Below are positions 28,285-57,339 of a DNA stretch of 64,000 nucleotides, one piece after another. The notes below the pieces were generated by a model. It was not told the DNA's origin, did not search any database, and saw nothing but the letters and a program-made list of their open reading frames with translations. Each line of letters starts with the position of its first letter. Position 1 is the first letter of the stretch. The translations under genes were made by a program, and so were the position numbers. This stretch comes from Eledone cirrhosa (lineage: Eukaryota). The stretch is taken from assembly GCA_964016885.1 (NCBI GenBank), contig OZ024743.1:169136001-169200000 (forward strand). The letters run 5' to 3'.

Positions 28285-31200
28285 GGAAATAAATAATTTT
28301 CTATAGATGATAAACACAACCATAAGGATATGGTCCGAACGTCGAAGAGCCGAATTCCCACTATCATCGCTTCCATCACTTTCGCTCTCCCCATCTCTCT
28401 GTATGGTGAGCAAATGGGGTCCCACGTGCTGGCCGCCCCACAGCCCCGGCGGACAGAATGGAGAAGGCGTTTCCCCGGAGGATGGTAATGGAGATACGCT
28501 GGAAGAGCCATTCCATCTCGCGTGGCTCACACCTGCGGTTGGCCAGCTCAGCACCTATGGTGGTGAGTAGGGAGGTAGCTCTAGGGCCAAGGACACCAGA
28601 AGTCTTCACTGCCAAGGGCACGACCGCAAACCTGTCGATCGGTACTTGGAGAGTTTTCCCTCCTCAGTCCGACGTGCAGCAGAACCTGGGTTTGTCGCAG
28701 ACTGCACCAGGTTGCGGCCGGAGAGAGTGTCGCTGCAAGAGGCATCCCAGACTAGGGGTTTTCCACCGCGGAACGGGAAGATGGTCAACCCGTCTGGACC
28801 TTTGCCGTCCTCTCGATCCATCCCCACCGGCTTGAGCTGGGAGGGGAAGCCTGCAGCATCCAAGCCATGCTTTATGATCTCGATGAGGTCAGCATGGCAT
28901 GGAAGGCGGCCGGCACTGTGGCGACAGGAAAGCCGGTGGGGTTTTGAGGCCGCGCAAAAACAGGCAAGGCGGTGCTGTCGAGCTGGTGCGTGATCCTGTC
29001 TGAGGCCAGGCTCACTGGATGGCATCCCGGGACTTAACGTCAGCAGGGGCAGAAGGAGGACGGACATCTACTGGGCTAAGACCCAGCCGGTCCCACGTCT
29101 CAGAGGCGGCCTCATGTTCCACGATCACAGAAAGTTCCATTGTATTTTGGAGAACCCTGCTGAGGTTACCGACGAAAGAAACGCCAACAAAGCCAGCGAG
29201 ATCGGGGACCGGCGGCCAAGGCCACCATATCTAACATGTAAAGTTGCCTGTTGCCATCCAATGTCGTCAAACCTGGCGTTGCATATCTCCTCAGCTGCCG
29301 CTTGGATACCAGTATAGAGGTCAGAGAAGAGAGATGCGTGGCTGCAGCACAGAACGCTGCGAAGGGTGTAGAGGAGCTTCGGCATGGCGAAGCAGTTCCT
29401 CAACAGGAAGAGTGCTGGGTGGGCGTCAATCAAGCCCAGTCGGCTCGTGAGGGTCTTGAGTTGTTGGAGCCTAGCCTGGACCTGATGATGGAGCGGATGG
29501 CCGGGTGGTGGTTCGGTGACCCGAGGATGAGGGAATCCTCTTTGGGGGTCACCTGTACCTGGTGGAGAATGAACCGCACGTCCGAGACGGAGGCTGCAAA
29601 GCTCTCAGCATCGTGGTTGACATTCACCACCTCCGACTTGGACGAGTTGACCAGGAGGCCGATTCCTGCATGGACAGGAACCACCGATTGTAGGTCATGG
29701 CAGACAGTCTCTACGGTCCGCCTAACGTAGCATCATCCAACTACCAAACGTTGAGAGGGGCCGTGATACTCCGGGCAATGTGGTCTATACCAAGAGCAAA
29801 TAAGGGGGTGGGATCAAAGGGTCACCATTTTGGACCCCAGTGGCTGAAGGTATGACCGTATCAGCAGCAAGGAGCATGCTCGGGGCTCTATATGATAGGT
29901 AGGTCAGCGTGTAGGCAGAGGGGGCTTGGCTGAGGCAGGCATCGAGCACATGGTCACAGCGTGTGCAATTGAAGGCATTCCTCGTGTCAAGCTTGACAAT
30001 GAGGCGTCTGGAGTCCCTGGATGCCAGTTCCAGCGAGCAGCTATTGGAAAACTGACTAGTTGCATGTGCGGACACGCCGACACATAGTTGCACCGGACTG
30101 AGCTCTTCACCGGCTTCTGGTGTTATGGACCTGTAGACCACCTTAGCAGCCAGCCTACGGAAAACATTGCCCACAGTGATGCCACCCTTTTTCTTCCTGA
30201 GAGCGGTCAGGCTAACCGAAAAAAAGAGGCCTCAGGCGTGAGCATTCAGGGCGCCATGGATGAGCCTATTGGTGAGTGCCACAATTGCACTCAGAAGGCG
30301 GCCACCGGCTTCAGTGGAGAGGGGGTATAGAAACTCCTTGAGGTGGCCAGCTCGGAGACCATCAGCACCTCCGGTGCTGCTAGCTGGGAGGGACTTGATG
30401 GCAGATATGATGTCTGCATCGGAAGCCACAAGGAGCAAGTGGGGATCGGGTGGGGGTATGGATTAAATGTCAGCGGGTGGCTCAGGGTGCTTAAGTCGCA
30501 GGGCAGCCGGGACCTCCTCGGTGGGTTGGAGGACAGTATCCTCTGAGGCAATCACTCTGACTGCGGCCGAGACATCACCCATGATTAGTTTTGCGTACAC
30601 ATGGTCGCATCAACGCTTGGCGCTAGCCTCAGGGTTGGGGGATTGAAGACACTCGAGAGCAAGGGGTGTGGAGTCCTTCAGCACGTTTGAGGTGGGCACT
30701 TGCCCAAAGGACGAAACATTGGCCTTGACAAAGGCTGTTGTCGACAGGTCGCCTCGGTCAACGCCAGAGTTGGGGAGGCCGAGGCCGAATGGGCGAAAGG
30801 ATGCGCTCACATTCGCTGGCTCGGTTAGAGTCCAGGGCACTCTCAATCGAGGAAGCGAGGGCATCGCCTACCGGCACCCGGGCCGCTCTCGGAATCTTGA
30901 GCGGAATCTTCCGGAGCTGCCCGAGCCGAGTGATGTTGACCAGCGAGGCTTGGGGATCAGACAATCTATCTCATCCGGTGGTGTGCCAGACGGCCGTGGC
31001 TGGGCAGATGAGGGGAAGGGACAGTTGCTGCATCTCTACGCTGCGTGGGCACTGAAGGCTCAACGCACAAGCCAACACAAGTGAGATGATCAAAACAGCC
31101 GCACCCCGAACAGTTCCGCCCCCTCTTCCATCTGTTCTGGGTGCTGCAAGTGCTGCAGGCGTCGACAGGTGGGGCTGGAGGATGGGTCATGGAGCCTAGA

Positions 31201-31316
31201 ACTGGTGCACCAAGTGGCATCAAGGGCGAGTGGCTGGGTGGAAGGGAAAGTGCTGGTATGAGTGAGACCTCATAGCTCACCTACACCAGATCTGAAGGTG
31301 ACAGAAGACATGAAAG
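28285..31316 (-). mobile_element. CRE-clade non-LTR retrotransposon (PHD-like finger + RT + restriction-like endonuclease), decayed
   Basis: GNVFRRLAAKV, VKLDTRNAFN, GVQNGDPL, W.LDDAT, ATLHVRYGGLG (RT). PDGLTIFPFRGGKPLVWDASCSDTL, EEGKLSKY, PLAVKTSGVLGP, LFQRISITILRGNA (RLE). CSTC...CSGCGCFDHLTCVGL at the N-terminus. The 3' boundary is approximate. Confidence 0.85.
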
Positions 31317-32559
31317 AAAACAAATGAGAGAGAGCTAAATAGAAGAGAAAGGGAAAAGATAAAGAGATGAAGATAAAAACGAAGAGAGGGAGATAGAGAT
31401 GGTAGAATATATAACTGTATAAGGAACAGGAAGAAAGAAGAGAGGGACATGATGCGTGACCGTTTTTGTTTTCAAATACCGTGAAATTTTTAATCTATTG
31501 TATTTGATAGAAATTATACTATTATATTATATCAAAATTAAACAATATACGATAATATAAAAAAATATAAAACATTTGCAATGATAATCTGGAGCATAGT
31601 TAAATTAATAAATACATTCAATAATTTAGTTATAAAATTCAAAGTTAGAAACATTATTAACTAACAAAGATCCTTACAAATATAGTAAATAAGTATGAGA
31701 GTGTTTAACATAACTTACTTGGATATTAGCATCTGTATATGCATTTTATATAATGTTTAGAATTATAAATATTATAAACAATACTATTTAAATCAATATT
31801 TGTCAATTACATATAGGATTAATTATTAGTTATATTTACTGTATTATTATTTCGATTCAACCAAATCTTACTGTATTCAATACTATAAATCAAGGTAAAT
31901 ACAAATTATTAATCAACTTGGATAAAACGAAAATTATACACGATAAATGTAAACAAAAGCTCCGTACGACGTTTAAATTAACTAAACGGTTTAAAAGCCT
32001 GAAGATATTACAGATCTCAAATTTAGAAAATTCAAAACATAAAAAGAGGATTCAAAACCAAACTAAAGGTATTTATTCAATCAAGAGATTATCATACTCT
32101 ATAAAAGAACCGATATGCATTTCCTAAGGTGAGGTAGAACATTATACATAATACCAATAATAATAGCATTACAAGAATTATTAATAAAAGTCAATATCTT
32201 TCCTCACTCGGTCAATGTTTTTTCTAAATTTATATGTTACTTGAAATGTTCTTGCAGATTTATGGAGGCAATTTGAAAATAACTCACTATTTTATTAATT
32301 AAATTACCATAATTAGCAATTATTAATAGAGTCTCTAGATTGCAAATATTGCAGTTAGGTGAGATGGAATTATTCCGATATGCTTCACAGTTTCTACGTT
32401 TAATTCAAGAGATTGAGTATTTTATATTTTTCTCTTTTAAAGACCATATTAATTGTGCTAATGAAGTAGAACATTTTTTATCCGGATTAGAAAAAGAATG
32501 TTTATGATTGGAAAATTTCAGTTTTAAGTTCGATGAAAAGTAATATCATTATTTGTTAA

Positions 32560-56980: not shown

Positions 56981-57042
56981 TTTTATCTGACGAAGACGTA
57001 CTGAAAAAACAGCACAATACCTTCGAAATATATATAATAAAA
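56981..57042 (+). ncRNA. Type I hammerhead ribozyme (family A, CTGACGA core)
   Basis: TTTTAT-CTGACGA(56987)...GAAA(57025)-TATATA-TA-ATAAAA. Confidence 0.82.
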
Positions 57043-57339
57043 CATATATTTTGATTATGTGAATGTCTTCATTTATTATTATTCTGAATAATAATAACTC
57101 CAGAAAACCTTTTCTGTAGAGTAATTTTAATCTATTGTAAAACTATATTCATTGAGTAATCAATTAACCATATTAATCTTTGGTCATACTATATATGTGT
57201 ATATATATATATATATATATATATATATATATATATATATATATATATATCCAGTGGGTGTAACTAGGAGTTACTGCAGGTTCACCCAGGTACCAATAGA
57301 GACAAGGAACATAACGCCAATAGATTACCTGGAACCTAT

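Follow-up and report, generated by a model that had tools for sequence, protein, structure and literature searches.

Introduction

Endonuclease-bearing Penelope-like elements (PLEs) leave insertions in which pseudo-long terminal repeats (pLTRs) are inverted, one of them carries a tail and the junctions hold palindromes, a structure for which self-priming on an antisense template has been proposed (Arkhipova et al. 2013, PMC3846280). The same inverted layout is drawn in the available sections of Craig et al. 2021 (PMC8557442), so that this architecture, which a first-pass annotation of the DNA studied here had given as known, is indeed published. Here, we followed up paired hammerhead ribozyme motifs in 64,000 nt of Eledone cirrhosa DNA (assembly GCA_964016885.1, contig OZ024743.1, positions 169,136,001 to 169,200,000), the window to which all coordinates below refer unless a locus is named. 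The window lies within a 3.0-Gb genome, is AT-rich and abounds in (TA)n. We report that the two arms of a pair almost always stop at two different fixed outer ends, one long and one short, a rule that points to priming on both strands of the target.

The origin of inverted, tailed PLE insertions is named as an open question in the available sections of both PMC8557442 and a study of PAc, a Poseidon element of Anolis carolinensis (Frangieh et al. 2024, PMC11167929). According to the latter, PAc cuts and extends both target strands in vitro, two internal reverse transcriptase (RT) start sites bound its tail, and a dimer is predicted. In LINE-1 twin priming (Ostertag and Kazazian 2001, as presented in the available parts of PMC4859970 and PMC11702581) both target ends prime on the RNA, and an untemplated G is taken as the copied cap in LINE-1 and SVA (PMC4859970). 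Animal non-long terminal repeat retrozymes are non-coding tandem units with type I hammerheads for which PLE partners have been proposed (PMC7761336 and preprint 10.64898/2026.07.22.740005, in their available text), and the Hydra clade of PLEs already includes Hydra-1_Obim of Octopus bimaculoides (PMC8557442).

Results

The paired divergent ribozymes described by the first-pass annotation are real. A motif search of the window for CTGAYGA...GAAA hammerhead cores placed a minus-strand core on the left and a plus-strand core on the right at each of the five places that it had named (45318-/48021+, 54118-/56987+, 49499-/50767+, 41741-/41839+ and 38632-/39903+), with further cores at 52385- and 35024+, and self-BLAST of the window recovered inverted arms around the cores. 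An Rfam scan of the window gave no hammerhead at E<=1, only microsatellite-driven noise, and the hammerhead shape was partly recovered in minimum free energy folds; the predicted ribozymes thus rest on core motifs, stems judged by eye and these partial folds. We distinguish six families, of which A (cores 35024, 54118 and 56987), B (41741 and 41839) and C (38632, 39903, 45318 and 48021) are PLEs and D, E and F are non-coding. In all six, the pairs are the 3' ends of elements set head to head and inserted in (TA)n.

Measured from the hammerhead motif, the elements stop at two fixed outer ends, each followed by (TA)n: +107 and +198 in family A, +108 and +195 in B, +107 and +190 in C, +111 and +251 in D, +93 and +257 in E, and +228 and +284 in F. 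We counted how these ends combine in 220 fetched loci of families A to E (some overlapping) plus the window, retaining each distinct divergent pair for which both ends could be called and family sequence made up at least 60% of the interval. Pairs that fell short on either count were set aside, and so was the whole of family F, because its TA-rich interior produced false ends. Among 94 contiguous divergent pairs, 88 combined a long with a short end, five were short+short and one was long+long; in two of the five short+short pairs a later insert has split a long tail, and one of these is the family D arm of the window, which holds a Helitron-like insert. The rule is kept by families D (16/19 pairs) and E (8/8), and long+short pairs of family F were recognized by eye at L226, L235, L250 and L252.

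A second set was selected by its junctions only and comprised 80 loci, 40 each of families A and C, drawn from about 50 listed per junction pattern after excluding loci already fetched and the last few. Here, 37/40 loci of family C and 31/40 of family A were long+short, none was homotypic, and one end was uncalled in 3 and 9, respectively, so that all 68 called pairs (68/68) obeyed the rule. In the window it holds at 38.5, 41.5, 42.3, 48.4 and 54.0 kb. The pair at 45.1 kb has a long arm that overshoots the usual +190 site by ~20 nt. Single-arm copies end at either site, long or short, both sites are AT-rich, as is the target, and neither family A nor family B yielded any read-through beyond the far site.

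Neither arm is regularly the longer one. In the 88 pairs, the short-end arm extends further 5' in 45, the long-end arm in 23, and the two are about equal in 20; in 10/88 pairs the long arm is the tail piece alone and has no overlap with the other arm. That the short-end arm is so often the longer implies that each arm needs template beyond the other. The 'non-coding core' and the 'spacer' previously described between paired ribozymes are not separate DNA: they consist for the most part of 5' sequence of the longer arm that the other arm does not duplicate. Within pairs, the arms agree at 466/469 subfamily sites in family C (38 pairs) and at 425/446 in family A (30 pairs), compared with ~0.57 in shuffled pairs, which argues against the independent insertions that would have undone the original proposal. 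The arms of a pair come from one source, and gene conversion could add to this agreement.

The inner ends of the arms also have preferred positions, piling up at -68 in family A, -69 in C and -80 in B. The family A position is +1 of a sequence composed of TATAAAT, 21 nt and TCACTG, and the inner-end position is likely to be a transcription start. In the first 100 listed of 476 family A matches, counted by hand, G had replaced the genomic C before +1 in 48, T had done so in 42 and A in the other 10; the T class may derive from joins to TA or from mutation. Across the fetched loci, an extra G occurs at 15/27 ends at the inner site and at 14/91 elsewhere, on short and on long arms, and often on the short. 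From the pile-up and the extra G, we infer that the template was capped sense RNA. Exact start-to-start junction patterns were found at 1,775 places for family C and 230 for family A.

The first-pass annotation had also proposed to inspect the junctions for microhomology. By BLAST, 29 of the 88 junctions overlap, mostly by 1-6 nt, 8 are blunt and 51 gapped. Gapped junctions often carry short, locally copied filler, although some gaps are mere divergence from the reference, and the fillers differ between loci. Such junctions fit the end-joining of two cDNAs, and they fit the snap-back of a hairpin as well.

The orientation of neighbours within 6 kb was recorded on one contig (C1) for the first 100 exact matches listed per family. 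Families A to F together gave 79 divergent, 1 convergent and 62 direct pairs, and polarity is thus non-random among the matches listed, in line with the first-pass annotation. In the order divergent/convergent/direct, the counts were 14/0/0 for A, 13/0/1 for B, 25/1/3 for C and 11/0/4 for D (subtotal 63, 1 and 8; chance expectation for these families 0.2-1.7 pairs each), and 11/0/19 for E and 5/0/35 for F (subtotal 16/0/54). In 40 symmetric 10-kb loci of family A, an inverted tail arm lay upstream of 21 anchors and downstream of none. Exact patterns of the six families occur in the whole genome 1,100 (A), 3,849 (B), 16,482 (C), 763 (D), 1,450 (E) and 6,103 (F) times.

A family with a single end served as a control. 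The PLE at 42845-45017 (also 4312-5576 and 62142-63950), with a CCHH-type endonuclease and a minimal minus-strand hammerhead at 42979, is putatively Neptune-like. Its 3' end is fixed at one site, next to (TA)n, and its exact pattern occurs 2,867 times in the genome; 100 listed matches yielded 0 divergent pairs, and none of 30 loci of 3 kb had an inverted tail. Having a symmetric TA target is therefore not sufficient for inversion, which in these families accompanies the presence of two end sites. Neither the end rule nor the (TA)n target nor the fixed inner end had been noted in the first-pass annotation.

By motifs and ORF matches, we assign families A-C to the Hydra clade. Pfam RVT_1 and GIY-YIG matches on pieces from the window were weak and all under the cut-off, and of 18 proteins matched in a homologue search none had a name usable for labelling a family. 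An intact family C open reading frame (ORF) of 800 aa is present at locus L134 (+ 2892-5291); by tblastn it is 74-91% identical to the family C pseudogene of the window and ~42-68% to other remnants. It contains SDKTNN (DKT), CNCRIKNKC (CxCX5C) and CNLCLNEK...INRR...CLH (CxxC and CxH around E and N), and CCHH is absent, judging by eye against the Hydra alignment in the supplement of PMC8557442. Families A-C share with the Hydra clade, as portrayed in the accessible parts of that paper, these motifs in a C-terminal endonuclease, the lack of CCHH, a hammerhead in the pLTR (here at the motif level) and the (TA)n target. They differ from it in RW(T/I) for RWK (RLRWTAYF or RLRWIAYF in family C versus RMRWKAFF in Hydra-1_Obim), a long 3' untranslated region (UTR), thousands of copies per family and a unit of ~3.9 kb (3,940 bp for the family C tandem unit), above the <3 kb given there as usual, a descriptive trait. 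Other long open family C ORFs lie at L140 (- 4677-2353) and L148 (- 4494-2071), 775-821 aa from stop to stop including L134, and suggest recent activity.

The tandem units of families D, E and F measure 1,964, 593 and ~430 bp; they are non-coding and have no tblastn match to the Hydra ORF. They have the retrozyme trait of non-coding tandem monomers with a type I hammerhead (at the motif level), D being much longer than E and F. An ~18 kb array of family F at G000:C1:51775040-51793002 alternates intact and altered hammerhead cores. ACTC stands directly 3' of the near site in families A-E and also of the far site in E, and families A-C have a GAGT partner downstream of it. A hairpin conserved behind every start site was thus seen only in part, with weak folds and with F lacking the motif. 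A tail fold bringing both start sites side by side appeared in the family E reference fold alone and not in consensus folds, and was rejected as a general feature.

The architecture of these families is not a product of assembly. Start-to-start joints are present in contigs of X1 and X2, which may be the sample of the assembly itself, and raw reads from another study have loose ends at 39833 and 40003, corresponding to the -69 site and the short end. These reads did not cover the centre of the palindrome at 38.5-40.0 kb, and that centre and the junction at 34.7 kb are unconfirmed as single loci.

Discussion

The end rule, the arm lengths and the junction-only set strongly suggest, from the genomic copies, that two target strands prime on the RNA of the element. 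We consider it probable that these pairs arise by twin target-priming at two fixed RNA sites, followed by end-joining. The (TA)n target would be cut on both strands and each strand would prime reverse transcription of sense RNA, one starting at the near fixed site and the other at the far one. An RT-endonuclease dimer would cut the two strands and contact the two start sites, in the simplest case on a single RNA. Where the start sites used are those close to the 5' end of the RNA, run-off would explain the many mini-palindromes of 420-460 bp; the 3' copy of the start sites would give arms that include the ORF, and host end-joining would close the middle. The ribozymes point outwards because each arm is the 3' end of an element; they appear to be passengers, their polarity a by-product.

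A more specific version, which we offer tentatively, is that the dimer holds a single capped RNA at the two fixed start sites, primes both strands of the TA break and, by strand displacement, makes two copies of that one RNA, that elements with one start never invert, and that the D and E retrozymes carry the same start signal and use the same machinery. For D and E this would amount to a borrowed Hydra enzyme, and their end rule together with ACTC supports, but does not prove, movement by such an enzyme. Family F, which lacks the motif, may have another partner.

Several described systems come close to this arrangement. The endonuclease-bearing PLEs of PMC3846280 and PMC8557442 (available sections) share with the present families a head-to-head inverted copy at the 5' side, a tail on one side, palindromes at junctions, pLTR hammerheads and a microsatellite target, but their tails are 30-40 nt compared with 56-164 nt here, and in the text available the tail is called optional, without pairing counts. 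PAc shares two RT starts that bound the tail, an AT-rich target, the use of both strands and an uncleaved RNA as template, yet in the accessible part of PMC11167929 the two sites are not tied to opposite strands of one insertion. Junctions with microhomology or end-joining, and an untemplated G read as a mark of the cap, are shared with LINE-1 twin priming (PMC4859970 and PMC11702581, in part). Families D and E combine retrozyme structure with the Hydra signature of two ends, an inverted cap, a TA target and ACTC after the near site, which is not given in the portions available of PMC7761336 and the retrozyme preprint. In our families both priming sites are fixed and the arms usually overlap, just 10/88 pairs being without overlap. 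In LINE-1, by contrast, the second priming site is variable and the arms are not known to contain duplicated sequence.

The main rival to twin priming is a hairpin made first, by self-copying of the cDNA or of the template, and then opened by the endonuclease, whose staggered cut would fall on the near site of one strand and on the far site of the other. Both steps have precedents in print, self-priming as a proposal (PMC3846280) and endonuclease resolution as a guess for the tail (PMC8557442, available text), and the outcome would be one long and one short end on identical arms; palindromic junctions are frequent, and both end sites are AT-rich like the target. We nevertheless find this route unlikely, since single-arm copies end at either site, an antisense template gives no reason to expect inner ends gathered at the sense start and bearing an extra G, blunt junctions and junctions with fillers are numerous (59/88 without BLAST overlap), and the PAc data link the tail to RT start sites (PMC11167929, in the part available). 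A simpler fold-back, in which a single target-primed cDNA folds on itself after synthesis and self-copies into the second arm, was among the routes that the first-pass annotation had listed next to priming on opposite strands of one break, which fits best. Fold-back would account for arms that have subfamily and private variants in common and for the 43/88 pairs in which the long-end arm is longer or equal. It cannot make most pairs, being impossible for the 45/88 with a longer tail-less arm and for the 10 without overlap, and it is frequently the short arm that carries the extra G; we judge it improbable and reject it as the general route, though it may act at some loci.

Events at the DNA level or in the assembly would be another source of such pairs, be it independent insertions into one TA tract that were later homogenised, inversions or assembly fold-backs. 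Every family targets (TA)n, the arms at 38.5-40.0 kb have a long private poly(T) in common and are 99.6% alike versus ~97% to the nearest fetched copy, and the repeat at 31.2-34.7 kb holds flanking DNA. Set against this are 79 divergent pairs to 1 convergent, centres without a TA tract, the long/short rule, and the recurrence of the junction forms in the short-read contigs (X1 and X2) and in raw reads, and we give these explanations very little weight. Least credible of all is the idea of the two-ribozyme palindrome as a functional mobile unit or regulatory RNA in its own right, spreading as a whole. In its favour, the near-fixed junctions number in the thousands, but fillers vary by locus, in many arms the ribozyme is incomplete or missing, and arms match within loci across several subfamilies, as expected if pairs are built anew.

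A number of observations weigh against twin priming or limit its reach. Four homotypic pairs (L190, L172, L103 and L116) are unexplained. The closure of 15/40 family C junctions on shared ATAT and the many palindromic fillers fit hairpin snap-back equally well, and although both arms carry a G at the L286 and L318 junctions, fold-back can mimic this. No clear excess of long-arm stalling at the near site was seen, so that the arms may be copied from one RNA or from two. At threshold, 19/40 family A anchors had no inverted tail arm (18 without a tail neighbour, 1 with a direct one only), and second priming is therefore not obligatory. The reading of the inner end as a start is weakened by the lack of a TATA box at -30 in family C, by only a weak one in B and by the lack of a single sharp inner-end site in D, E and F. 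PAc belongs to another clade and, in the available text, showed no start-site difference between strands (PMC11167929). Target-site duplications are hidden by (TA)n, and it is from genomic copies that we infer two-strand priming. The copy at 31189-35230, moreover, requires an extra DNA-templated step during or after insertion.

The proposal that one integration mechanism produces all of the structures consequently needs to be narrowed. Five families at the least (A-E, and probably F as well) do bear one signature, in insertions from ~150 bp to 4.6 kb, but a mechanism for all of them fails at 31189-35230, where the inverted repeat includes flanking DNA. The feature is genome-wide, its shape is already published, and the elements are new members of a known clade; what the copies add is the counted end rule, the control family and the cap signature, which make the mechanism testable. 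A literature search, conducted outside most subscription papers (among them reviews of 2005 and 2006), found no paper on long/short pairing or a cap G for such elements. The genomic end rule yields concrete predictions for the existing in vitro system, and the intact ORF at L134 is suited to testing them. The extra G favours a capped sense template over the published antisense proposal, and the common signature links animal retrozymes to a named enzyme clade. For annotation, ribozyme palindromes of 400 bp, of which this genome has thousands, are likely to be stumps of retroelements rather than miniature inverted-repeat transposable elements or regulatory RNAs.

Annotation of the window

The family A insertion at 54011..57183 is flanked by (TA)n on both sides and has a minus-strand body with a broken RT/endonuclease (RT/EN). 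The body has its short end at +107 from core 54118, holds an insert near 54920-55110 that resembles a short interspersed element, and meets the plus arm near 56460-56502; the plus arm has core 56987 and the long end at +198. A piece of a Hydra-like endonuclease ORF (57268-58200, 310 aa open) adjoins this long end. In the family C insertion at 45110..48125, a 265-bp minus arm of the long type (core 45318, inner end -61) meets, at a junction at 45373, a plus arm made of a 5'-truncated RT/EN pseudogene, the 3' UTR, core 48021 and the short end at +107. A second family C insertion, at 38527..40091, is a near-perfect palindrome with the short end on the left (core 38632) and the long end on the right (core 39903; tail 40009-40091). 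Its arms are identical at 738/741 positions of 38527-40008, ungapped, and its centre is family C's own 8-bp palindrome GAATATTC at 39264-39271.

The family B mini-palindrome at 41556..41946 has its long end on the left (core 41741) and its short end on the right (core 41839), with an unpaired middle that is extra 5' sequence of the right arm. In the family D insertion (48375..50878), the left minus arm has core 49499 and its long end at 48375, and the right plus arm (49534-50878) has core 50767 and the short end at +111. The long tail is split by a Helitron-like plus-strand insert at 48508..49405 with a TC start and a hairpin plus CTAG end, lying between A and T. The end of a second such insert, again a hairpin plus CTAG, lies near 38372.

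Two pairs had been described as half motifs of the same divergent polarity. At 42259..42844 (family E) the polarity holds, but the long left arm carries a full variant hammerhead and the right arm (42724-42844) is truncated, stopping inside loop II. The hammerhead at 42485-42600 has a TTGATAA core, with U3-A8 replacing C3-G8, and a long loop II. It belongs to a tandem unit of 593 bp that is young and has a strongly folding tail (z -6.4). The family F insertion at 52134..52738 consists of ~1.3 minus units with a minimal hammerhead at 52385; its right arm (52697-52738) is inverted, as described, but is just a 42-bp piece without the outer part and its normal end.

The rearranged family A copy at 31189..35230 has minus-strand RT/EN remnants and, as had been reported, an inverted arm with one hammerhead (right arm, core 35024, long end); its left outer end, however, is absent. 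In its inverted repeat (31189-31840/34050-34699, 98.8%), ~128 bp are non-element flank, followed by a short duplicated stretch of the element. A GC-rich, minus-strand RT-element remnant occupies 28100-31316, and its last 128 bp are copied into the adjoining inverted repeat.

Besides divergent pairs, the window has a direct pair (2790/3328) and the single-ended hammerhead element at 42979. The direct pair consists of two older family A ends at 2460-3459. At 5640-8184 and 8932-9278, a plus-strand, family B-like RT/EN remnant is followed by a long-end arm with core 9093. An inverted repeat at 60469-61510 has 238-bp arms (97%) and a 248-bp direct duplicate, with no hammerhead core found in it, and degenerate AT-rich palindromes unrelated to families A-F lie at 52998-53482 and 36778-37207. 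Finally, pieces of a Gypsy-like long terminal repeat element pol at 1-1284 and 18068-23442 are ~94% alike, in opposite orientation and 17 kb apart, and a gag-like region is duplicated at 21465-23442.

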